A stretch of DNA of 22,304 nucleotides from Candidatus Thorarchaeota archaeon (GCA_011364905.1 RDNZ01000031.1:1-22304); one strand, 5' to 3'; shown: positions 8,374-22,304, counted from the stretch's first letter. Program-made: numbers and translations. Notes: a model not told the origin generated them from the sequence alone.

Positions 8374-9060
8374 TCACATAACATCATGAAGAATAGCATT
8401 TCCATCCTTACCCACTTTCCTCAGAGTCCTCATTATTCGTAGGCAGTACGTCAGTCTCTGAGAGAGTCGTCGAGAGATTCCTAATGCCTCAGCAAGGTCA
8501 GAGTTTTTGAAAGGCTTTTCAAGCGAGTCCGGGATGAAATGCAGGAAGTCAGTTGGCTTTTCATAGAGCCTTCTATCTGTGACCTCGAGCAGTCTGTGGT
8601 CCACAATGCTCCACCCCCTCCTTCGCCAACTTCCCTTTCCATCTTGATGGCGGATTTCTTCCTCTTCGATCAATAGGACTTCTATTGAGAAGTTGGAGTG
8701 CGTTATGAAATTAGGAATTCTCACAAGCTCATCGAATAAGTCCTCAAAAGCTCCTCTCTTTGGTGACAATCTGCGACTTAATTGAGTCGTTCCATCTAAG
8801 GTTTCTTTCAGAATCCATTTTTTCTTTGGTATTGGATAGACGAGTCTGATTGGATGGTTTTTCATTAAGGTGCGAAGCTTGTCCTTGATTGCTGCGAAAT
8901 TCCGGGTTTGGATTTCAATTAGTAGGTTGTTTCTGACGACATCTACGACGTATCCTTCCACCACAACCTCAGCTTTAGCGCCACCTGTCGTATAGAGGTC
9001 TTTCAGACTGGCGTGAAGAGACCCCTCCTGCAAAGTTCCTATGACTGGGCTATTTGACAT
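8374..9060 (-). CDS. Putative PD-(D/E)xK nuclease-fold protein with C-terminal wHTH
   Basis: EGSLHASLK...E...VVDVVRNNLLIEIQ (D...EIQ pattern); C-terminal FKNSDLAEALGISRRLSQRLTYCL; GGTGA SD upstream. Confidence 0.65.
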   Translation of the reverse strand: MSNSPVIGTLQEGSLHASLKDLYTTGGAKAEVVVEGYVVDVVRNNLLIEIQTRNFAAIKDKLRTLMKNHPIRLVYPIPKKKWILKETLDGTTQLSRRLSPKRGAFEDLFDELVRIPNFITHSNFSIEVLLIEEEEIRHQDGKGSWRRRGWSIVDHRLLEVTDRRLYEKPTDFLHFIPDSLEKPFKNSDLAEALGISRRLSQRLTYCLRIMRTLRKVGKDGNAILHDVM

Positions 9061-9079
9061 TCAGCTTCACCAAAGCAAA

Positions 9080-9541
9080 TCAGAGGTGTTTCGTCCAAAT
9101 AGATGCGTCACTACTGGGATAGAGTGACTCTATAGATGCAACCTCTTTGAACTTGTTTGCAATGTAGAATTTGCGCGCGATTTCATTATTGTGCTCCATA
9201 AAAAGTAGAATTACACGTAATTGATACCCCTGAGTTTTGTAGTATTGTGTAGCTTCATCTATCATTGCCTGAACTAGTTGTTTCCCAACTCCTTGACGCC
9301 TAAAATCAGCAGTGACACCCAAGCCAATCATCTCCACGACGCCATCATCTAAACCACCACGCGCCTCCCAGCTGGCAGTTCCGCAAATCACATTATTTTC
9401 AACTGCAAGCAGCGTGTTATACCTAAGTACCAGATCATTTGCGAATTGCTGGGCGCGCTCCGCATGATTCTCAATCTCGGTTCTATACATCGTTTCGAGT
9501 GATGGGATGTCAGCTCGTTTGGCAGTTCTGATTCTCATCAA
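9080..9541 (-). CDS. GNAT family N-acetyltransferase
   Basis: IRTAKRAD start, motif A LGVTADFRRQGVGKQLV, motif B NEIARKFYIANKF. Confidence 0.92.
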   Translation of the reverse strand: MMRIRTAKRADIPSLETMYRTEIENHAERAQQFANDLVLRYNTLLAVENNVICGTASWEARGGLDDGVVEMIGLGVTADFRRQGVGKQLVQAMIDEATQYYKTQGYQLRVILLFMEHNNEIARKFYIANKFKEVASIESLYPSSDASIWTKHL

Positions 9542-9591
9542 TACAACCTGACAGACTCTCTCAAGTCACTCATATCTGTTGTTCGCTTTTA

Positions 9592-10371
9592 CTACTCGAT
9601 AATCAAAATTGCATCGACATAGAGATCGTATTTCTCATCCTCATCGATGTTGTAGATTTTCGCCTTTTCTACCTCGCCCTCTCCAAGAACCTCAAGTAGT
9701 CTGGATTGATACAGAACCTTGACATTAGAGCCGGATAGTCGTTCAGCAAGCTCCGGACTTATTACGAGTGTTTCATCCGGGGTCAGCAGAATCACTCGGT
9801 CCGTAACCTCTGTCAAATTAATAGCAGCATCTACTGATTCATCCCCTGAATAGAGCACTATAGTCCGTTTGTTCTTGAAATCATTGGGATCTTTTACAGT
9901 GAGATAGACGCCTTTGCTGAGAAACTCATCCTTCCCAACGAGGCATTCGATTTCCTCTTCTACTTCTTTCTTGTCATCAGGAACTTCTTCGCCTTTCCTT
10001 CTACGGTAGCTCTTGATTGCCTCATGCAGAGCATCAGCTGCCAAATTGGAACAGTGCATCTTTATCGGAGGAAGACCATCCAACTCTTCAGCAACATCTC
10101 GACGTGTCAACTTCATAGCCTCATCAAGACTCATACCCTTGACCATCTCGGTTGTCATGCTCGTTGTCGCTATCGCTGATCCACAACCAAAGGTCCTGAA
10201 TTTAGCATCAGTGATGGTGTCACCATCGATGCGGATAAAGACCTCCATGATATCTCCACAAGTTGGATTACCAACCTTGCCTACCGCAACGTCATCTCCT
10301 TCAAGGGTCCCTACATTACGTGGATTGCGGAAGTGATCCAATACTTTTTCACTATATTTTGTTGATTTCAT
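9592..10371 (-). CDS. iscU: IscU/NifU Fe-S scaffold fused to a degenerate thioredoxin-reductase NADPH-binding domain
   Basis: YSEKVLDHFRNPRNVG, GNPTCGD, FGCGSAIA, LPPIKMHCS (three Cys plus His, LPPxK); extra C-terminal domain of about 115 aa with a TrxB-like pattern. Confidence 0.92.
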   Translation of the reverse strand: MKSTKYSEKVLDHFRNPRNVGTLEGDDVAVGKVGNPTCGDIMEVFIRIDGDTITDAKFRTFGCGSAIATTSMTTEMVKGMSLDEAMKLTRRDVAEELDGLPPIKMHCSNLAADALHEAIKSYRRRKGEEVPDDKKEVEEEIECLVGKDEFLSKGVYLTVKDPNDFKNKRTIVLYSGDESVDAAINLTEVTDRVILLTPDETLVISPELAERLSGSNVKVLYQSRLLEVLGEGEVEKAKIYNIDEDEKYDLYVDAILIIE

Positions 10372-10383
10372 TTTCTATCATCT

Positions 10384-11547
10384 TTACTTGGATTTGTATA
10401 TTGGAGACAGTTTTCTTAGTCGCGAGACCACATTTGGCACTGCTTCAAGTGCTTTATCAATGTCATCATCTGTGTTGAATCTGCCCGATGTCAGTTGAAG
10501 TGAGCCATGGGCTTCTTCATGGAGTAGTCCTGTTGCGATGAGTGTGTGTGAAGGCTCAAGAGTCTTTGATGTACAAGCGGAACCCGTTGAAACTGAAACC
10601 CCAAGATCTTTGAATGAAAGCAGAATCGATTCTCCTTCGATTCCATCAAATCTAAAGTGCGCGTTAGAAGCTAAACGGTTCGTTGGATGACCATTGAGAT
10701 GGCTGTCAGGGACTTCTTCTAGAACCTGTTTAATCATCCTGTCACGATAACCCTGTAACCGCTTTACTTCGGAGTCCATTTCCTTCTGCACTATCTCCGT
10801 TGCTAAGCTCATTCCAACTATTCCTGGTATATCCTCACTTCCAGACCTCAAGCCTCTCTCCTGCCCTCCTCCAATAATCATGGGATTGACTCTGTACCTT
10901 TTCTGCATGTACATTACTCCCACGCCTCTTGGTCCATAGAAGTCATTTGATGAGAGTGCCATGAGATTGATGTTGTCTTTTCTCACGTCAATTGGAAGAA
11001 GTGCTTCTGCTGCGACTGCATCAGTATGGAATGCTATCCCTCTCTCAGCTGCGAGTTTTCCAATCTCATTGATCGGTTGAACTGTGCCAATCTCGTTACT
11101 TGCCATTCCGACAGATATCAGAATTGTTTCATCTCTTATTCGTTGTTCAATTTTCCCTACATCTACCATGCCATATTGGTCAACAGGAACCTTTGAAATC
11201 TGGAATCCCTCTCTTTCAAGATACTTGGCGATGTTGTGAATCGAAATGTGTTCTACTTCTGATATGATAATATGATTCCCTTTGGTCTTGTTCCGAAATG
11301 CATAGCCCATTATTCCTAGATTGATTGCCTCTGTGGCTCCTGATGTGAAGATGATTTCATCCTCATCGGCATTTATGTACTTGGCAATTTTCTTTCTGCT
11401 TTCTTCCAGAGCATCGGTTGCTACGTCGCCCACTTTATGCAGAGATGATGGGTTCCCAAAATCCTCCGTGAAGTATCTTGCCATCCCCTCGACTACTCTA
11501 GGATCGACTGGTTTCGCGCTCTGGTAGTCTAGATACACCTGTTTCAA
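10384..11547 (-). CDS. iscS: IscS/NifS-family cysteine desulfurase homolog lacking the PLP Schiff-base Lys
   Basis: YLDY, FGNPSSLH, FTSGATEA, EH, NEIGTVQP, GGGQERGLRSG, STGSACTS (Cys retained); SSNDFYGPRG replaces the canonical S(A/G)HKxYGPKG. Confidence 0.93.
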   Translation of the reverse strand: MKQVYLDYQSAKPVDPRVVEGMARYFTEDFGNPSSLHKVGDVATDALEESRKKIAKYINADEDEIIFTSGATEAINLGIMGYAFRNKTKGNHIIISEVEHISIHNIAKYLEREGFQISKVPVDQYGMVDVGKIEQRIRDETILISVGMASNEIGTVQPINEIGKLAAERGIAFHTDAVAAEALLPIDVRKDNINLMALSSNDFYGPRGVGVMYMQKRYRVNPMIIGGGQERGLRSGSEDIPGIVGMSLATEIVQKEMDSEVKRLQGYRDRMIKQVLEEVPDSHLNGHPTNRLASNAHFRFDGIEGESILLSFKDLGVSVSTGSACTSKTLEPSHTLIATGLLHEEAHGSLQLTSGRFNTDDDIDKALEAVPNVVSRLRKLSPIYKSK

Positions 11548-14690: not shown

Positions 14691-16541
14691 TTAGTCATCC
14701 ATGTACGGGTCTTCATCAATATCGATGTCTGCGTAGCCAACATCCCTCAATAGGTCTTCAATCGACTCAGCTCCAGTGACCCATGAGAGTGCCCATTCTC
14801 CATCATCGTGGAGATTCAATTCCACATCCGGGAGGTCTCCGAGCAGGTTGTGGTCCATCTCTATAGTATCTTGATATGCTCCTGCAAGTGCTAGGACAAA
14901 GCAAGATCCTCGAACATTCCCAAGATTACCAACTGGAATCCCATCGCCCATCATGCCCCCGGGTGTTGTCAAGAGCCTATTGTCCTTGGTAAACCATACG
15001 CTATCTGTATGTGGTCGATAAAACTGAGTTATCTCACCATCGGAATCGCATGTTATGTCCACGAGCCGGACAGTGGTTTGTGGTTTCACATGGAGATCAC
15101 TAATAGGAAGAACTGGAAAATGCTGTTGTACCAAGACGTGGTCAGCGACGCTGTTAAAGACACTGAAGTTACCGATTACAATGTGCTCCGGGCGCCAAAA
15201 GTTTCTGAGAAGACCATCAATCTCATAGGACTTTAGATTCAATTCGACAAGTTTCGATCTCACTGCATCCTCAAGAGTCCCTGTTATCATCTCTTGCTCA
15301 AAGATGAATTTCATCCCTTTCAGATTCAAACCGCCATATTTCTCATGGAATTCGTTCCAAATCTCTCGAAGGTTTTCCAAAGTGGAGGCTTCCTTGATTC
15401 TTTCGAGGGTTGGTTTGACATCCTCTTCAGAGACTTCTGAAATGCTTCGTTTCTCAGGCGACGGAAAGATTGATCGCACTTCGAGAGCCTCTACAATGAC
15501 CATGGATGCAAGTGCTGTGACACCTCTACCCGACTCTATCATGATGTTTGGTGGTGGATGTTTTCTCCCTATTTCGGAGAGTTGCGACTTCACTCCCGAC
15601 ACGAGGAGATGTGCATATTGATACATCAGATCTGGTGTAAGCGAGCTTGTATAGTCAATTGCTAAGCCTCCTCCGAAGTCAATACTTGCAAGCTCAGTTA
15701 ATCCGAAATCCCGAAGTTCAGCATAGAATTGCGTTAGAAGCTTTCCAAATCTCTCGAAGGCTTCAATCTCAGTTATTTGTGAACCTGCATGGGCAAGGAT
15801 GGTTTTGACTGAACTGGAGAAACCGCTTTTTTGTAGCAGTTCGACAACATCATAGAGGTCATGAATACTCAGGCCAAACTTGGAGTCTCTTCCAGTGGAA
15901 TGCGACCAATGTCCTTGCACACTCAGATATGGCTTGATTCGCAGCACAAGGTTGGTTTCATCAGGCTTGAAGCGCTCAACAATCAAGCTGAGTTCATGGA
16001 CCGACTCCACCGATATGGCTATGTTGTATCCCTCATCCACACACTGTTTGATCAACTTCAGATACTCGACGTCCTTGGCGCCATTGCATACAATGGGCCT
16101 ATGCTTTTCACTCTCGATGACATGTTTGATGAGGAGGAGCTCCGCCTTTGTCCCTGCTTCCAGCCCATAGTCTGAGTCTGAGCGAATGACTGCAGTGACA
16201 CAGTCTTTCCGTTGATTCACCTTCACGGGATAAATGCCTATGAAACTACCCGCATATTCAAGCTCGCTCATTGCACGATCGAATGCCGCCCTTAGTTTCT
16301 TGATTTGATATGTGATTAGCTGTGGCACACGCAAGGTAAACGACGAGGTATAGCTCGGGGCGTTTCCATTCATTTGCTTTATTCTCTGAATGATTTCTTT
16401 GAAAGTGATGAACTTGTCACCAAGTATTAGAGAGAGGTCTCCATCTTCTGTGATGTCCAGAAAGTGGAGGTCATTACGGTTTACGCCATAAATCCATCGC
16501 GAGTCATCTAGTGACCAAGTTTCTTCTACCAATAGATTCAC
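14691..16541 (-). CDS. speA: Biosynthetic arginine decarboxylase (PLP fold-type III, SpeA-like)
   Basis: YPVKVNQ (PLP Lys), GLEAGTKAEL, CNGAKD, SKFGL, HAGSQI, DFGGGL, ESGR, NFSVF, DITCDSDG, GAYQ, HNLLG; start may be TTG 16532 after AGGTGA. Confidence 0.88.
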   Translation of the reverse strand: MNLLVEETWSLDDSRWIYGVNRNDLHFLDITEDGDLSLILGDKFITFKEIIQRIKQMNGNAPSYTSSFTLRVPQLITYQIKKLRAAFDRAMSELEYAGSFIGIYPVKVNQRKDCVTAVIRSDSDYGLEAGTKAELLLIKHVIESEKHRPIVCNGAKDVEYLKLIKQCVDEGYNIAISVESVHELSLIVERFKPDETNLVLRIKPYLSVQGHWSHSTGRDSKFGLSIHDLYDVVELLQKSGFSSSVKTILAHAGSQITEIEAFERFGKLLTQFYAELRDFGLTELASIDFGGGLAIDYTSSLTPDLMYQYAHLLVSGVKSQLSEIGRKHPPPNIMIESGRGVTALASMVIVEALEVRSIFPSPEKRSISEVSEEDVKPTLERIKEASTLENLREIWNEFHEKYGGLNLKGMKFIFEQEMITGTLEDAVRSKLVELNLKSYEIDGLLRNFWRPEHIVIGNFSVFNSVADHVLVQQHFPVLPISDLHVKPQTTVRLVDITCDSDGEITQFYRPHTDSVWFTKDNRLLTTPGGMMGDGIPVGNLGNVRGSCFVLALAGAYQDTIEMDHNLLGDLPDVELNLHDDGEWALSWVTGAESIEDLLRDVGYADIDIDEDPYMDD

Positions 16542-16570: not shown

Positions 16571-18049
16571 CTATCCTTCATCTTCACGAATTGAGTCGAG
16601 CATCCCCTGAAAAGCACGGGCAAGCTCGCCAATCTCATCATCTTTTGCGGTATAAGTCGTGTCCACTTGAAGGTCTCCAGTATCAAGAGGTTTGTCTAGA
16701 ATCCTTGCTGCAGCATTTCTTTCTGCCAGGTCAATGAGATACTGTAATGGCCTAGTAATAGTATTCGAAATGGCAACAGCCGCTATGCCCGCTATCAAAA
16801 TGCCTCCGACTGTAACTAGGATAATATAGGTCGCAGCTTGAGTATTCTGGTTGGCGATACGAGCCTGAAGCAGTGGAATACTTTCTAGCACTTCGTTTAG
16901 CGGGACTGATATCACACAGATGTAATCACCCTTGCCTACTTGTGTGAATACTAGAATATGTTCAGTTCCTCCTCGAGTATATCTGAGGGTTCCTGAGGTT
17001 CCAACGGCTACACTAGTGATTTGGTTGATATTGGCATCTGTCAATGCTGAAGTGAAGTCCGGATTGACCTCCACATTACGAAGATCCGGTAGACCACCAA
17101 TGTAATCCTCATCACTAACCTCCGGATGCGCTACTACACCTCCAGCCGAATCGACTAGAAATGCATACCCGCTCTCCAGAATCTTGACATTGATTACTTT
17201 CTCCCTGATGTCTTCTATGGTGATGTCTCCGGAGATGACGGCAAATGGAATACTGTTTCTATATACCACTCTCCCGATTGAGATTAGAAGCACATTATCG
17301 AATTCATCATAGTATGGTTCAACAAACACCACGTCGCCATTTCCCGCCCAGATTGTCTGATACCAATCTTCTCCTCTTGGGTCATAGGGATTTGCCAATC
17401 TTGCTGGATCAGTAAGCTCTCCAAGAATACTACCTGGATAGTTTATGAATAGTCCATCATCAGCAAAAGCGATGTAGAGCCATCTGAACGCCAACTGATT
17501 GTGTATCGCTTTGAAGATGTAGTCCATATTGGATACCCGTCCAAGTTTGTCGGCATTCGCAGGAATGTCCGCATAGCTTGAATTGTAGTTGACGGAAGTT
17601 GTCCCTGCAACATACCAGCTGCTATAGTCCCATGACACATTCAGGCCATAATTGGGATCATAGTGATTATCGCTTGGCGCAGGAGAAACGCTGTCGTCTT
17701 CGAACAAAAGGTCATAGTATACTTCTCGATAGGCGTATGTTGAGCCGGCATCAAATAAAGCCTCGAGTTCTTCTGCTGCAGCCGCAATCATTCCTTCTGC
17801 ACTGGCCAACTTTTGGTTAATCACTAGAGCGGTCTTTTGAGCGGTTTCATTCATATTCGTTTGAATTTGATTCTCCAGAGCCTGTGAACTCTGGTCTCTT
17901 GTTGAGTTACCTATTAGATTCACAAAAGTCAGTGAAACCAGACCGGTTGCAGTTAATGATACAAGTGAGATTACTAAGAAAGTAAGAATCACATTTGTTC
18001 GGAATTTCCCCTTCTTCTTGGTTTGGGTTGTTGACTGTACCATTCTCAT
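16571..18049 (-). CDS. Membrane receptor-like protein TM-dCache_1-TM-HAMP with no output domain
   Basis: TM1 VILTFLVISLVSLTATGLVSL; dCache motifs YDPRGEDWY, EPYYD, ISGDITI, GYAFLVDSAGGVVAHP; TM2 YIILVTVGGILIAGIAAVAI; HAMP ITRPLQYL...DEIGELARAFQGML then stop. GGAGGTG SD at 18052-18058 (ATG 18049 or 18043). Confidence 0.88.
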   Translation of the reverse strand: MRMVQSTTQTKKKGKFRTNVILTFLVISLVSLTATGLVSLTFVNLIGNSTRDQSSQALENQIQTNMNETAQKTALVINQKLASAEGMIAAAAEELEALFDAGSTYAYREVYYDLLFEDDSVSPAPSDNHYDPNYGLNVSWDYSSWYVAGTTSVNYNSSYADIPANADKLGRVSNMDYIFKAIHNQLAFRWLYIAFADDGLFINYPGSILGELTDPARLANPYDPRGEDWYQTIWAGNGDVVFVEPYYDEFDNVLLISIGRVVYRNSIPFAVISGDITIEDIREKVINVKILESGYAFLVDSAGGVVAHPEVSDEDYIGGLPDLRNVEVNPDFTSALTDANINQITSVAVGTSGTLRYTRGGTEHILVFTQVGKGDYICVISVPLNEVLESIPLLQARIANQNTQAATYIILVTVGGILIAGIAAVAISNTITRPLQYLIDLAERNAAARILDKPLDTGDLQVDTTYTAKDDEIGELARAFQGMLDSIREDEG

Positions 18050-18059
18050 CGCACCTCCT

Positions 18060-20933
18060 TTAATAATCGGTAGTGGTTCCTCCAACCTCCATTTGTGCCA
18101 TTAGCACTCCGACTTTCTCAAATGCTCTCTCAATATCTAACCGAACATTTGTGCTATCAACCACAGAGATGTACTGCCCCTCCGGAATCCCTTCACATAT
18201 AGATTGCAGAAGTTCCTCTGTGGTTATTGGTTGCCCTGTGGTGCCTGATCTGATTCTTTTATCAGTGTCCGCTCTATTATTGAGTTCCTGCCCAACACCA
18301 ATGATCAGTAGATTGACATCCAAATGATGGTCTCGAATGAAGCCCTCGATTGTCAGTGGTCTCTTTCTTTTCATTCTGTCCTTTTCTGTGACAATACCCT
18401 CAAGAACATCCAAAGAGTACCTCTTTGAGCTGTTGTCTTGGCCATCAGTCAAAGCGATGACCCATCGATGCTCGCTTGATTCAATCCTCTCAAGCTCTTC
18501 AAGTGCTCGGCCAAGAGCATCATAGAATGCAGTGGCGTAGTTGGGATATTTCAGAGATTTCAATACTCTAACAATTTTATTCTCCTCATCTTCACTCTCT
18601 CCCTTGATTGTCAGCGGAAGCAATTCTCGATAGGATGAGTTGAATACTATCACTGACACTTGATCCTGCGGATTGACTTGAGAATGAAGTATCTCTAGGG
18701 CTCCTCTAACAGCCGCTCTTATCCGATTCTGAGCCTGCATACTGCCTGAATAGTCAATCACGAATGTGACACTCTTTCTGAACATGATTGAGCGCCGCAG
18801 TTTCTCAGCTTTTCGTCTGACTTCATGACTTGGCTCGTTACGCTGGTCAAGAACATCTGCCAGCCGCTGCAACGCATAAACAACCAGCCAGAGCTCATCA
18901 GTGTCTTGACCGAGTCCGATTGCTTCGTTATATGCCCCTTCTGCCTTCTTCCATTTTCCTTGAACCTGATTCAACTCACCTTCATGAAATTGGATATAGG
19001 CAAGGCTTCTGATATAGTCAATCGATTTTGCTATCTCTTTTGCCTCATTGAATCTGGATTGAGCTTGACTGTAACGTCCATCATGCATCAGTACAAGTCC
19101 CATCGCGTCGAAACGTTTTGCTAGACCATACTGATTCTTTAATGTCCGGTCGATGGCTTCAGCATCTTCTAGGAGCTTCATTGCCTTATCGGCGTGTCCA
19201 CGATCCATCTCAACAAGTGCCATGTTATGATAGAGAGAAGCTATTCTTTGCATTGCGTCTCTCTCATCTGCACCCTCTTCCTTAGTTCTCTGTAGAATTC
19301 TCTGTGCGATGGCCATGGATTGTGAATAGTAATCCATTGCATTTCCTGTATCGCCTCTTTGCCTGAACACATTTCCAATGTTGAGGAGCATTGTCTGCTC
19401 TCCAACATCGATTTGAAGTCGTCTACTTATTTCAAGCAAATTCTGGTAGTTTGCCAACGCCCGATTAAGGTCGCCGCGAATGAATGCCTGGTTGCCAAAT
19501 CGCGCTGCTTCTTGAAAACTAAGAAGCGCATCAACCGTGGTACCCACTTCTTCATACATCGCCCCTGCTGCTGTGATTCCTCTCGTGAAGTCTTGACGCG
19601 CCATTTTATTGACAAGACGAGTCATCTCAGTGATTGGCTCAATCACCGCATTGGCTCTTCTATAGGAAGCAGCGGCTACAACTCCTGCGACCATCGCAAG
19701 AACAGCTCCTAAAGCAATAGTTAGAATTAACGTCTGTGCACCCACAAGATGAAGCATATTGCTTGCTGGAGCAATCACATCCGAGTCGGGAACAACAATG
19801 GCTAGTATATACTCCGTATTCGTGATATTGGCAAAGGCCATATGCCATGTTTGTCCATTCTTTTGGAATTCCAGCTGACCTGCTTCATAGACCAGAACGT
19901 TGGAGTTGAGTTGATTATCGAACTCGATAGCCTCAGGACTTGTTGTGCTCCCGAATTCCAAAGTTTCAATGGGGAGGGGATCATCAAAAACACCAAGATC
20001 TGGGTGTGCAACTACGACACCGTTTCTATCAAGTAGATATGAATATCCGTTGTCCAGTACGTCGAGGTTCAACACTTTTTGGTTGATTGTTGCCATAGTC
20101 ACATCTGCAGACACAACGCCAATCAGTGTTCCATCGTCGAATCTGACTGGTCTTCCCATGGAGATGACTAGACCCACTGATGGATCAACATATGGCTCCG
20201 TGAAAACAACGCTGTTATCACTGGGATCTTGTGCTACCACATTTGTGTACCAGTCTTCTGCATTAGGGTCATAATCTTGCGCAGGTGGGACTGGATTTCC
20301 ATCTTCATCCTGCTGGAAATAGATGAGGTTGTCAAATGGATAGTTTCTGAAGAGATGTTGGTCGGATATGTTAAGGTCGAATCCCATGTATAGCCATCTG
20401 TAATCCTCATTCATTTGATGCAGAGACCTGAAGATGTTGACCATGTTGGATGAAACGTCCAGAGCATATTGTGTTCCAGGTGAGAGATCATGCGGGTCGT
20501 TATTGTTCCATGCAAAACGCGGCATGTAATAACAATCAGTTTGAAACGTGATATTATTTGAAAAATAGGCCTCGACAATACTAGGGTCTGTTTCAAAGGT
20601 GAGATCCCCCCAGTTGGGCTCTTCTAGGGGGTCCCAATAATAGCTGTACTGCGCCGTCGCATTTATCCGTTCATTGAACAAGTCTTCGCAGTAAGCCTCC
20701 ATCATATAGACGCCATCTACGTAGTTCTGCCATCTCTCTTCAATGAATAGACTTGTGTCATTAGCAAGTCTCATGAGATTAGCTAATTCTTCTGTCTTCA
20801 GCTCCCCTGCAGCATCGGATGCGTTTGCATTTGACAGGTCGTTTATTGCGAGTATCGATAATGTCGAAATGACCAAAATCGGGATTAGTGCAACGGTGAC
20901 GAATGTGATTACTATTCTTTTTGAAATCCTCAT
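18060..20933 (-). CDS. Membrane receptor TM-dCache_1-TM-HAMP-TPR-VWA
   Basis: TM1 IVITFVTVALIPILVISTLSIL; YDPNAEDWY, TEPYVD, VVSADVT, GYSYLLDRNGVVVAHP; TM2; HAMP VIEPITEMTRLVNKMARQDFT...EEVGTTVDAL; about 5-6 TPRs; VWA with DYSGS, ATAFYDAL and LTDG (complete MIDAS). Confidence 0.9.
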   Translation of the reverse strand: MRISKRIVITFVTVALIPILVISTLSILAINDLSNANASDAAGELKTEELANLMRLANDTSLFIEERWQNYVDGVYMMEAYCEDLFNERINATAQYSYYWDPLEEPNWGDLTFETDPSIVEAYFSNNITFQTDCYYMPRFAWNNNDPHDLSPGTQYALDVSSNMVNIFRSLHQMNEDYRWLYMGFDLNISDQHLFRNYPFDNLIYFQQDEDGNPVPPAQDYDPNAEDWYTNVVAQDPSDNSVVFTEPYVDPSVGLVISMGRPVRFDDGTLIGVVSADVTMATINQKVLNLDVLDNGYSYLLDRNGVVVAHPDLGVFDDPLPIETLEFGSTTSPEAIEFDNQLNSNVLVYEAGQLEFQKNGQTWHMAFANITNTEYILAIVVPDSDVIAPASNMLHLVGAQTLILTIALGAVLAMVAGVVAAASYRRANAVIEPITEMTRLVNKMARQDFTRGITAAGAMYEEVGTTVDALLSFQEAARFGNQAFIRGDLNRALANYQNLLEISRRLQIDVGEQTMLLNIGNVFRQRGDTGNAMDYYSQSMAIAQRILQRTKEEGADERDAMQRIASLYHNMALVEMDRGHADKAMKLLEDAEAIDRTLKNQYGLAKRFDAMGLVLMHDGRYSQAQSRFNEAKEIAKSIDYIRSLAYIQFHEGELNQVQGKWKKAEGAYNEAIGLGQDTDELWLVVYALQRLADVLDQRNEPSHEVRRKAEKLRRSIMFRKSVTFVIDYSGSMQAQNRIRAAVRGALEILHSQVNPQDQVSVIVFNSSYRELLPLTIKGESEDEENKIVRVLKSLKYPNYATAFYDALGRALEELERIESSEHRWVIALTDGQDNSSKRYSLDVLEGIVTEKDRMKRKRPLTIEGFIRDHHLDVNLLIIGVGQELNNRADTDKRIRSGTTGQPITTEELLQSICEGIPEGQYISVVDSTNVRLDIERAFEKVGVLMAQMEVGGTTTDY

Positions 20934-20973: not shown

Positions 20974-22304
20974 CTAGCTGCTCCAGTTTGCTAACTCCTC
21001 CAACAATTTCCTTTGGAAATCATCGATATCCTGTTTCTCTTCCAGGATAAACTCATCTCCTGAGAGTGATCCCTCTACAGATCCTTCACCAAGAAGAATA
21101 ATTAGTGTCCGCCGCAAGATTCGACGATCCACACCAGTTTCTTGTTCAAGTTGCCGAACATCTAATGAATTCGTACCACGCAGTAGGTTACGAAGAGTTT
21201 CAGGTACCTTCTGAATGCTTTTTCTCGAGGGTGCAGGTATCTTCTTTTTCTTTGTCGATTCTGTTCGTACGAACATGTTTCCATCAATATGTCCCTCTAT
21301 CACATCACTTTGAATCATCGCTTGAAGACTACGCCGCAAGTTGTATGCCGCCGGTCTAGGCAGAGTCCGTCGCAGAATTCGGTCGAGGTCTTTGAGCTTG
21401 ATTCTGTTATGTTTCGATGTTATTGAATCAATGCTCTCTTGGATGTACTCCTCGATCACGTATTCTTCAATCATCTCCAGTTGAGCTCCACATGATGGAC
21501 AAGTAGAAGCTTCTGGTGATGTCGGAGCCCCGCAGTTTCCGCATTTGATTGCTCTTCTGTAAAGAACTGTCTTCGTTGAACTGATCTGTTGGAGAATTAC
21601 TTTGTCAGTCCTTGTGACCTTTCCAGACTCCTGCACTTCCCAAAAGCTGAGTTTTCGATCTTTTGTGCTCAATACAAGAAATGCGACATCCGATATGTCA
21701 TCTGGAACTCCCGTAGCCATGGCTCTTGGTGTATCTCCTATATCTAGTCTATCAACCTCATTTCCGTCAAGGTCCCAGATTCGAAGAGTTGACGTCTGAT
21801 CCCCAGTTATGAATAAAGTCCGGCTTTCAAATGAGAGTACGGCAAAAACTGTAAGATGCGACCCCAACTGCAATTCTTTGAGCTGGTATCCAGCTGCCGT
21901 TAGAACAATCACCAGCCCAGTTTTGTCAGCAACTACAATCTCCAGTTCTGAGTCTTTTGTTATATCCTCTAACCAAACATCTGCAATTGGATTTCGCATC
22001 GTCCTCGTAAAGATTGCATCTGTATCATCATTGTAAAGGATCAATCGGTTGTTTTGTAGCCCTACTGCAACCTCAGCTGCATCATCTCCATCTATATCTC
22101 GCGCATCACATGCCACTACATTGCTCTCCAATCTGATATTCCAGACTGGGGTCCCACGATGATCGACTACCAATACCTTCTTCCCGACGCCCCCTACAAG
22201 GGCATCTTTTCCCTCACCTTCTACATCAGCAACAGCAATACATCGGACTTTGCTGCTCCACTTTCGGGAATCCCTCAACATTCCCTTTGCATCAAAAACC
22301 CTCA
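20974..22304 (-). CDS. Partial (5' end beyond window): FG-GAP-like beta-propeller + Zn ribbon + two PCI-like winged helices
   Basis: Frame stays open to the window edge (..RVFDAKGMLRD); blades ADVEGEGKDALVGG, RDIDGDDAAEVAVG, EDITKDSELEIVVA, TGDQTSTLRIWD, STKDRKLSFWE; CGNC-x10-CPSC; two wH-like segments ending VIEGHIDGNMF and SVEGSLSGDEF. Confidence 0.75.
   Translation of the reverse strand, partial: RVFDAKGMLRDSRKWSSKVRCIAVADVEGEGKDALVGGVGKKVLVVDHRGTPVWNIRLESNVVACDARDIDGDDAAEVAVGLQNNRLILYNDDTDAIFTRTMRNPIADVWLEDITKDSELEIVVADKTGLVIVLTAAGYQLKELQLGSHLTVFAVLSFESRTLFITGDQTSTLRIWDLDGNEVDRLDIGDTPRAMATGVPDDISDVAFLVLSTKDRKLSFWEVQESGKVTRTDKVILQQISSTKTVLYRRAIKCGNCGAPTSPEASTCPSCGAQLEMIEEYVIEEYIQESIDSITSKHNRIKLKDLDRILRRTLPRPAAYNLRRSLQAMIQSDVIEGHIDGNMFVRTESTKKKKIPAPSRKSIQKVPETLRNLLRGTNSLDVRQLEQETGVDRRILRRTLIILLGEGSVEGSLSGDEFILEEKQDIDDFQRKLLEELANWSS

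Follow-up and report, generated by a model that had tools for sequence, protein, structure and literature searches.

In a 22,304-nucleotide stretch of DNA from Candidatus Thorarchaeota archaeon (GCA_011364905.1 RDNZ01000031.1:1-22304; the window, at its full length) two neighbouring genes on the minus strand, to which all window coordinates below refer, encode a long receptor subunit of 957 residues (P0001; 18060..20933) and a short one of 492 residues (16571..18049), and the long protein stands for a real, uncharacterised receptor class. The two proteins are of a known kind, i.e. transmembrane (TM) dCache-HAMP receptors. The long chain is composed of TM1, dCache_1, TM2, HAMP, six TPR units and a VWA domain, in this order, and the short chain of TM, dCache_1, TM and HAMP, followed by the stop codon. 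New features are an output that is apparently non-enzymatic, a paralogous partner that looks obligate, and an unexpected spread over Asgard archaea, giant viruses and protists. With modest confidence we consider it probable that the long and the short subunit form a heteromeric, two-subunit Asgard receptor that uses the TPR-VWA part as adaptor output, a co-encoded β-propeller protein being the best candidate for its partner.

By its profile matches P0001 belongs to the dCache_1, TPR and VWA-MIDAS (metal-ion-dependent adhesion site) families, and to HAMP by homology. The reading frame is open over 957 codons, and each motif that the initial annotation had quoted from it was recovered at its position: FGNQAF opens the segment of residues 479-506 (19416-19499), LLNIGNVF that of residues 516-543 and YHNMALVE that of residues 568-588, while DYSGS, ATAFYD and LTDG are residues 727-731 (18741-18755), 800-805 and 828-831, respectively. 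The Pfam matches of dCache_1 (2.2e-17, 63.9 bits at a cut-off of 45, residues 211-379), TPR_12 (1.9e-14, 54 bits at a cut-off of 30.1), VWA_2 (5e-14, 53.3 bits) and VWA (3.4e-10, 40.9 bits; both VWA families on residues 722-882) all exceed the gathering scores and are far outside what chance would give; TPR_2 scores 40.4 bits at a cut-off of 27, and the TPR families together cover residues 479-699. A Kyte-Doolittle scan places TM1 at about residues 7-29 (20847..20915), directly behind MRISKR, whereas TM2 (about residues 398-423; 19665..19742), which is followed by RR, is defined by hydropathy and by an unbroken helix of residues 383-429 in the structural model. The extracellular dCache_1 sensor in between (about residues 35-392; 19758..20831) was delimited by Pfam and by alignment with PctA and Mlp37. 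Topology was derived from hydropathy and the positive-inside rule: the basic residues ahead of TM1 and behind TM2 put the dCache domain outside and everything past residue 425, including the VWA domain, into the cytoplasm, as had been supposed initially.

HAMP, TPRs and VWA fill the entire cytoplasmic part of P0001, where Pfam gave no MCPsignal match (PF00015). No catalytic domain was detected in Pfam, NCBIfam or PADLOC scans, and the only match to the PADLOC defence-system models was one generic TPR match. From its sequence, the non-enzymatic adaptor output that was initially proposed for the TPR-VWA part is plausible. GenBank lists the orthologue P0014 (Thorarchaeota AB_25) as 'Methyl-accepting chemotaxis protein McpC', a name that is misleading because the family has no MCPsignal domain.

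The HAMP domain, the TPR solenoid and the VWA domain are one continuous unit, with inter-domain linkers of 0-2 residues. A whole-protein AlphaFold model based on 35 orthologues (mean predicted local distance difference test (pLDDT) score 77.8) has a single long TM2 helix, twelve TPR helices that extend from residue 459 through residue 717 and have pLDDT values of mostly 85-95, and a VWA domain with strand β1 starting at residue 720. The divergent HAMP domain (residues 425-478; 19500..19661) comprises AS1 with Pro433, a connector and AS2, which ends at the RFGN junction. Its assignment rests on homology and on the helix-loop-helix of the model, in which a helix of residues 433-444 is followed by a loop and by a helix of residues 459-486 running on into the first TPR; this region has low confidence, as is expected of a dimeric bundle in a monomer model. 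Pfam recognises HAMP in 20 of 54 family members (best 1.1e-13) and these matches map to residues 425-478 of P0001. Moreover, Pro433 is conserved in at least 90% of the 54 relatives, and the family consensus around it resembles a textbook HAMP. As the HAMP profile of the relatives ends where the TPR profiles start (in P0162, for example, Pfam HAMP covers residues 449-500 and TPR_1 begins at 500), the description of a HAMP domain that runs into the TPRs with almost no linker is correct. The junction motif RFGN, with R478, G480 and N481, is invariant across the Asgard lineages.

The six TPR units (residues 479-717, twelve helices; 18783..19499) were identified by the Pfam families TPR_12, TPR_2 and TPR_MalT and by the model. 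They carry near-invariant Asn columns (N481, N518, N570, N610) in helix A and match PDB profiles of KLC1 (7e-41) and GPSM2/Pins (1e-32 to 7e-34), so that the initial assignment to the long kinesin light chain (KLC) and LGN/Pins type with conserved Asn is borne out by profiles and alignment alike. The TPRs of LGN/Pins and KLC hold extended peptides in their concave groove. The conserved helix A Asn residues fit such a peptide-binding groove, although they are no proof of it.

The VWA domain (residues 718-950; 18084..18782) belongs to the VWA-MIDAS family and has the complete fold, as seen in Pfam (VWA, VWA_2), Foldseek, alignments and a separate domain model (pLDDT 86.7, predicted template modelling score (pTM) 0.87) with the canonical six strands and a long last helix (residues 930-950). 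Its metal site is predicted from the five MIDAS residues, which had been described as intact and are indeed all present and conserved in the alignment of 54 sequences with 21-40% identity. Four of them, D727, S729, T801 and D830, do not vary at all, and S731 is kept in at least 90%; the five lie in DxSxS (18741..18755), in TAFYDAL (Thr801, 18531..18533) and in LTDGxDNxS (Asp830, 18444..18446), and the five residues together with LTDGxDNxS are the best-conserved positions of the whole protein. Conservation is in general much stronger in the cytoplasmic half than in the ectodomain. The VWA domain has a lineage-specific insert at about residues 835-870 and 885-905. The tail past the last VWA helix (18063..18083) contains a conserved acidic position, which is E949 in P0001; at least 90% of the relatives have their Glu at the G951 column. 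By analogy with the C-terminal Glu of the integrin αI domain one may speculate that this residue serves as intrinsic MIDAS ligand. In sequence and fold the VWA domain resembles ArnB, ITIH, CMG2, BatB, TFIIH p44, Rpn10 and α2δ about equally. Among PDB sequence matches ArnB ranks best (8s05, 1.9e-14), with BatB (3ibs) at 5e-10 and α2δ at 1.4e-4; Foldseek returned generic VWA matches only (E ~1e-10, TM-score 0.5-0.62; BatB 1.7e-10).

The architecture had been called unusual; it is, however, common, with about 100 clusters at 50% identity in Asgard archaea, giant viruses and protists. The representatives listed for these clusters have 850-950 residues, most or all of which are covered by the alignment. 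Orthologues with 60-95% identity to P0001 form more than 120 clusters, nearly all from metagenome-assembled genomes (MAGs) of Thorarchaeota, and an exhaustive profile-free search of 1.8 billion representatives yielded 132 matches at E<=1e-30. Within the 54 representatives Pfam finds dCache_1 in all, and TPR and VWA in 53 each. A species-genome scan found 96 relatives, some of them on closed chromosomes; the open reading frame (ORF) occurs in more than 100 independent assemblies, closed chromosomes included, and is thus not the mis-assembly chimera considered at the outset. No description of the dCache_1-HAMP-TPR-VWA architecture was found in the literature searched, so that prior characterisation, the other reservation made at the outset, does not apply. 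The window's own genome has one copy of the long receptor. All relatives with a named taxon are Asgard archaea (Thor-, Heimdall-, Hod-, Hermod- and Lokiarchaeota lineages) except for one from a MAG labelled Bathyarchaeia (L058, DATKZI010000011.1). The organisation of that locus is nearly identical to that of the Heimdall locus L056 and both group in the tree; the label is thus probably a binning or naming issue rather than a sign of a genuine non-Asgard member. Among the matches listed, i.e. the 106 best representatives with the MIDAS motif, none is bacterial.

The short subunit has Pfam matches to dCache_1 (1e-16) and HAMP (3.8e-7). Its gene is separated from the long gene by 10 nt, and the likelier start is ATG 18049, which stands behind the Shine-Dalgarno-like AGGAGGTG; a mechanical ORF list starts it at TTG 18085, in overlap with the long gene. 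In every related Asgard locus with enough contig the next gene downstream of the long one is the short one, and this order persists down to 25-30% identity, in Thor, Heimdall, Hod, Loki and Hermod lineages. In a tree of the sensor part, calculated from the dCache, TM and HAMP columns and leaving TPR-VWA aside, a single branch (Shimodaira-Hasegawa-like approximate likelihood ratio test (SH-aLRT) 97) parts long-type from short-type sequences and the two sub-trees are congruent. Thus, the duplication is old and both genes have travelled together since. Some lineages have added small outputs to the otherwise output-less short subunit: it ends in a Cys-rich, zinc-ribbon-like extension in a Heimdall paralogue pair (L069, ~8671-10309) and in a HEAT-like repeat extension in a Hermod locus (L065, ~8687-10442). 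The acidic C-terminus of the short subunit was considered as a universal ligand of the TPR groove or the MIDAS and rejected, as the tail is acidic in Thorarchaeota and basic in Loki, while that of Heimdall resembles neither.

The more distant half of this family (57 of 106 representatives) is non-archaeal and is separated from the Asgard half with full support. One member is deposited under 'uncultured virus' in a 650-kb record, the viral nature of which is based on the depositor's label, the neighbouring genes and relatives on three IMG/VR contigs from giant-virus MAGs. The contig of this member and other virus-like contigs encode a D5-type primase, RING and ankyrin proteins, aminoacyl-tRNA synthetases, IF2 and many ORFans, and on each of them a dCache gene of about 500 residues adjoins the long gene. 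Eight representatives, and more from MMETSP and EukProt, are proteins of 1520-1650 residues with four TM segments, in which the N-terminal half groups with short and the C-terminal half with long subunits, i.e. they are fusions of short and long subunit. The contig of one fusion carries eukaryote-type genes (ARL2-BART, CCDC81, FAST, RWD, Gβ-like WD40). These natural fusions are Rosetta-stone evidence that both subunits act together. When the paralogues were used as mutual outgroups, the virus/eukaryote clade fell inside Asgard diversity in both halves; as this is a quick tree with long branches we take the nesting as a lead only. The long receptors of viruses and protists have two invariant Cys residues in the ectodomain (P0169 positions 183 and 197), one of them within YDPRCRxWY, whereas the listed Asgard pocket motifs have no Cys at the second position. 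These two Cys residues may be linked by a disulfide in proteins that take a eukaryotic secretory route. On two virus-like contigs a gene for an AAA+ protein (PF00004) lies within a few kb of the pair (L086, 11038-13410 (-); contig of P0201, 658-2724); no such gene was found near the Asgard copies.

The sensor pocket suggests a change of ligand within the family. Of the PctA reference motif (Y121, R126, W128, Y129, Y144, D173) P0001 keeps the Tyr, Trp, Tyr, Tyr and Asp residues as Y221, W228, Y229, Y248 and D277, but has E226 in place of R126. In PctA R126 contacts the ligand carboxylate, and it is not conserved in amine sensors (10.1101/2023.04.06.535858). P0001 hence lacks the dCache_1AA amino-acid motif, which is present in its Loki and virus/protist relatives, and the Arg-type relatives have Mlp37/PctA as their best profile matches (~2e-24, as compared to 1e-12 for P0001). 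In the Thorarchaeote lineage this position is Glu in both the long and the short sensor. The substitution coincides with a neighbouring gene, speA, which encodes a SpeA-like, pyridoxal-phosphate-dependent arginine decarboxylase of 616 residues and is the last gene of the same-strand cluster in the window (14691..16541; Pfam Orn_Arg_deC_N). The protein matches the NCBIfam model of biosynthetic arginine decarboxylase over its full length (7.7e-105), with 351.8 bits at a cut-off of 369. In Thor and most Heimdall and Hod loci speA is adjacent, on either side, but it is not in Loki. The long sensor is non-Arg (mostly Glu or Asp) in 52 of 52 speA-linked loci, none of the short sensors called in these loci has an Arg at this position, and Arg-type loci without speA comprise Loki, one Heimdall paralogue and nearly all virus and protist copies (YDPRCRxWY). 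Three Arg loci have room on both sides, all without speA. As the pocket exchanges Arg for Glu next to a gene for SpeA, the product of which is agmatine, it is reasonable to infer an amine as ligand; the sequence thus suggests that the window receptor recognises an amine such as agmatine.

Upstream of the long gene the window encodes a cytoplasmic protein with an FG-GAP/BBS2-like β-propeller, a zinc ribbon and two winged-helix-like units (20974..22304). Its 5' end is cut by the window edge, with about 37 residues missing, and no hydrophobic segment was found in it. A homologue of the propeller part is found beside the pair in every Thor locus and, outside Thor, in 9 of 17 Asgard loci, among them those of Heimdall, Hodarchaeum, Hermod and Lokiarchaeum ossiferum. 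A protein-atlas look-up with the C-terminal half of the propeller protein gave 0.76-0.78, which is below the useful level, and HTH_24-like and PCI-like folds are both candidates for the winged helices. In two distant Thor-type loci a gene of the histone-deacetylase family, encoded on the other strand, lies just upstream of the propeller gene (L001, 5340-6422 (-); L002, 5369-6448 (-)); the window ends before the corresponding position. A scan for bacterial-type promoters and terminators stayed at background level and has no bearing on archaea.

Taken together, we propose that the long and the short subunit most likely assemble into a hetero-oligomer, in which the usual four-helix bundle would be built from the two HAMP units and each pair would carry one TPR-VWA arm. 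An extracellular small molecule would bind to the dCache pockets, for this Thorarchaeote probably a cationic amine (agmatine or a polyamine, for example) and for the Loki, virus and protist relatives probably an amino acid, and the signal would run through TM2 and HAMP into the arm. As AS2 passes without a break into the first TPR helix, and VWA β1 directly adjoins the last one, the cytoplasmic part would act as one rigid lever. The output would be ligand-dependent capture or release of a protein rather than catalysis, with a peptide held in extended form by the Asn-lined TPR groove, an acidic residue bound at the Mg-dependent MIDAS, or both. In Asgard archaea the co-encoded cytoplasmic FG-GAP-like propeller is the best candidate for the captured partner, with SpeA as a lineage-specific alternative.

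Several results weigh against this proposal. Pfam does not match HAMP (PF00672) to residues 382-478 of P0001 even at E<=10, so that the HAMP call of the initial annotation stands through homology to the relatives but not through a match in P0001 itself. Neither Foldseek nor the PDB profiles yield a specific nearest structural relative of the VWA domain from which a partner might be guessed. Among the 17 non-Thor Asgard loci there are 8, some of them with short flanks, in which the propeller gene does not adjoin the pair, and it was not found near the virus or protist copies; as it is missing at many copies, the propeller is not a universal partner. Within Thorarchaeota the wider neighbourhood is largely syntenic anyway. 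Finally, the test for correlated evolution of speA and the pocket Arg comprises two independent contrasts only, too few for significance, and with only two independent changes the association of speA and the Arg-to-Glu exchange could be inheritance.

The latter point also bears on the alternative that the TPR-VWA arm acts on SpeA itself, i.e. that the receptor senses agmatine or polyamines and binds, sequesters or releases the enzyme, exerting post-translational feedback on polyamine synthesis with the propeller as a mere accessory. The position of speA as last gene of the same-strand cluster, its adjacency in Thor and most Heimdall/Hod loci and the co-occurring pocket exchange speak for this. 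We nevertheless regard it as distinctly unlikely, since, besides the small number of independent changes, speA is missing near the Loki, L080/L082, virus and protist copies, which keep the invariant TPR-VWA part and MIDAS, and SpeA is thus not the ancestral target. To our knowledge, the dCache-HAMP receptors studied so far, i.e. chemoreceptors and sensor kinases, are homodimers, and the long protein might accordingly be an ordinary homodimeric receptor, the short one being a sensor in its own right, a decoy or a modulator with dominant-negative effect. The extensions of some short subunits, zinc-ribbon-like in L069 and HEAT-like in L065, likewise hint at some autonomy. The strict adjacency of long and short gene in all lineages, the congruent sub-trees that go back to one ancient duplication, the natural single-chain fusions and the same pocket substitution in both subunits of a locus, however, make a homodimer quite unlikely.

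There are two other scenarios. The VWA-TPR part may be a structural or assembly factor of the BatB or MoxR-VWA kind, which would, e.g., build or anchor a membrane or cytoskeletal complex and have no role in signalling. BatB is among the best VWA matches and also combines VWA with TPRs, and an AAA+ gene stands beside two virus-like copies; yet there is neither MoxR nor another AAA+ protein in the window cluster or the Asgard loci, the domain order is opposite to that of BatB, and the linkerless HAMP fusion argues for sensor-driven conformational control, so that we consider this scenario improbable. VWA and TPR domains recur in nucleoside-triphosphate-dependent biological-conflict systems, and this recurrence and the generic TPR match in PADLOC might indicate an anti-viral VWA/TPR sensor that triggers an effector. 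As the gene is single-copy in the window genome, lies in a stable metabolic neighbourhood that is conserved across a phylum, encodes an extracellular small-molecule sensor and comes without any match to an effector, NTPase or defence family, a conflict system is highly improbable.

The heteromeric receptor with adaptor output, which we prefer, shares parts with several known systems. Sensor fold, topology and the relay from TM2 to HAMP are common to the bacterial dCache_1-HAMP receptors PctA/B/C, Mlp24/Mlp37 and Tlp3. In contrast to these, P0001 has no MCPsignal, kinase, cyclase or phosphatase output, but TPR-VWA instead, exhibits a Glu at the position of the carboxylate-binding Arg and belongs to an obligate-looking pair of long and short subunit rather than being the product of one homodimer gene. 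The parts list of two dCache_1 units and one MIDAS VWA is the same as in α2δ and CACHD1, and the family profile matches α2δ-1 and CACHD1 at ~1e-34 (PDB profiles). In α2δ, however, the VWA domain sits as an insert within a dCache domain and located outside the cell (PMC8915833), whereas that of P0001 is C-terminal and cytoplasmic and follows HAMP and the TPRs. A special kinship with α2δ/CACHD1 was rejected, as the VWA domain is closer to ArnB, ITIH, CMG2 and BatB (1e-14 to 5e-10 vs. 1.4e-4) and the dCache domain matches bacterial amino-acid receptors no less closely. In the N-terminal dCache of Asgard relatives Pfam VWA_N matches below its cut-off of 34.7 bits (P0132, residues 120-197, 28.9 bits; P0292, residues 117-192, 27.6 bits); VWA_N is the N-terminal segment of α2δ and part of a dCache_1 domain, as Gumerov et al. 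showed.

BatB from the Bacteroides aerotolerance operon, a top VWA match, is also membrane-anchored and combines a MIDAS VWA with TPRs, but it is bacterial, its VWA precedes the TPRs, it has neither Cache nor HAMP, and it is encoded in an operon with a MoxR AAA+ protein. In P0001 the TPRs precede the VWA, and neither the window nor the Asgard loci L001 and L002 contain an AAA+ gene. ArnB from Sulfolobus, the best PDB sequence match, has a cytoplasmic archaeal MIDAS VWA, and in ArnA/ArnB the VWA works through regulated protein binding rather than catalysis (PMC12852372). Unlike P0001, ArnB has a β-sandwich, a phosphorylated helical domain and a ZnF-FHA partner that is bound away from the MIDAS, and it lacks a membrane sensor, HAMP and TPRs; in P0001 the VWA starts two residues past the last TPR helix, the protein ends at the last VWA helix, and no FHA protein is encoded nearby. 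An ArnA-like grip of a zinc ribbon on the VWA was rejected because in ArnAB the zinc finger contacts the β-sandwich and also the C-terminal domain rather than the VWA. LGN/Pins and KLC have the same long TPR_12-type repeats with helix A Asn, but these eukaryotic adaptors are soluble and fused to neither a receptor nor a VWA, and peptide binding by P0001 is an inference from them. Finally, the integrin head resembles the Asgard system in that a MIDAS VWA has an FG-GAP-like propeller encoded alongside it and an acidic residue is conserved after the last VWA helix. Here, however, all these elements are cytoplasmic, the sequence relation is at the superfamily level only, and the contact of propeller and VWA is putative.

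Kinases, cyclases, phosphatases or chemotaxis arrays are what a HAMP domain usually drives. Here HAMP is joined to a pure protein-interaction module, with a MIDAS that is invariant in the Thor, Heimdall, Hod, Loki and Hermod members sampled. If regulated binding is the output, this would be a fourth signalling mode for prokaryotic receptors, and one that occurs in the closest relatives of eukaryotes. Paired or fused, the subunits would constitute a rare obligate heteromeric dCache receptor, comparable to the heterodimeric class C G-protein-coupled receptors, where ligand binding falls to one subunit and signalling to the other. The occurrence in giant viruses and protists may provide a new marker for gene flow around eukaryogenesis and adds eukaryotic dCache_1 proteins outside the α2δ/CACHD1 template. 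According to a survey from 2022 all eukaryotic dCache_1 proteins have a VWA inserted in the sensor (PMC8915833), a statement that the fused protist proteins do not fit. One may go further and tentatively suppose that the pair is an ancient kinase-free device, in which an integrin-like MIDAS grips the FG-GAP propeller, that it arose by one duplication before Asgard archaea and the eukaryote/giant-virus branch split, and that protists and viruses received it from an Asgard-related ancestor, vertically or via viruses. We hold this to be unlikely; if true, it would mean that Asgard archaea and eukaryotes share an unrecognised receptor class, and it would contradict the published view of a universal VWA insert. 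The triad is encoded in Lokiarchaeum ossiferum (L074), an organism available in culture, so that bench work can address these questions.

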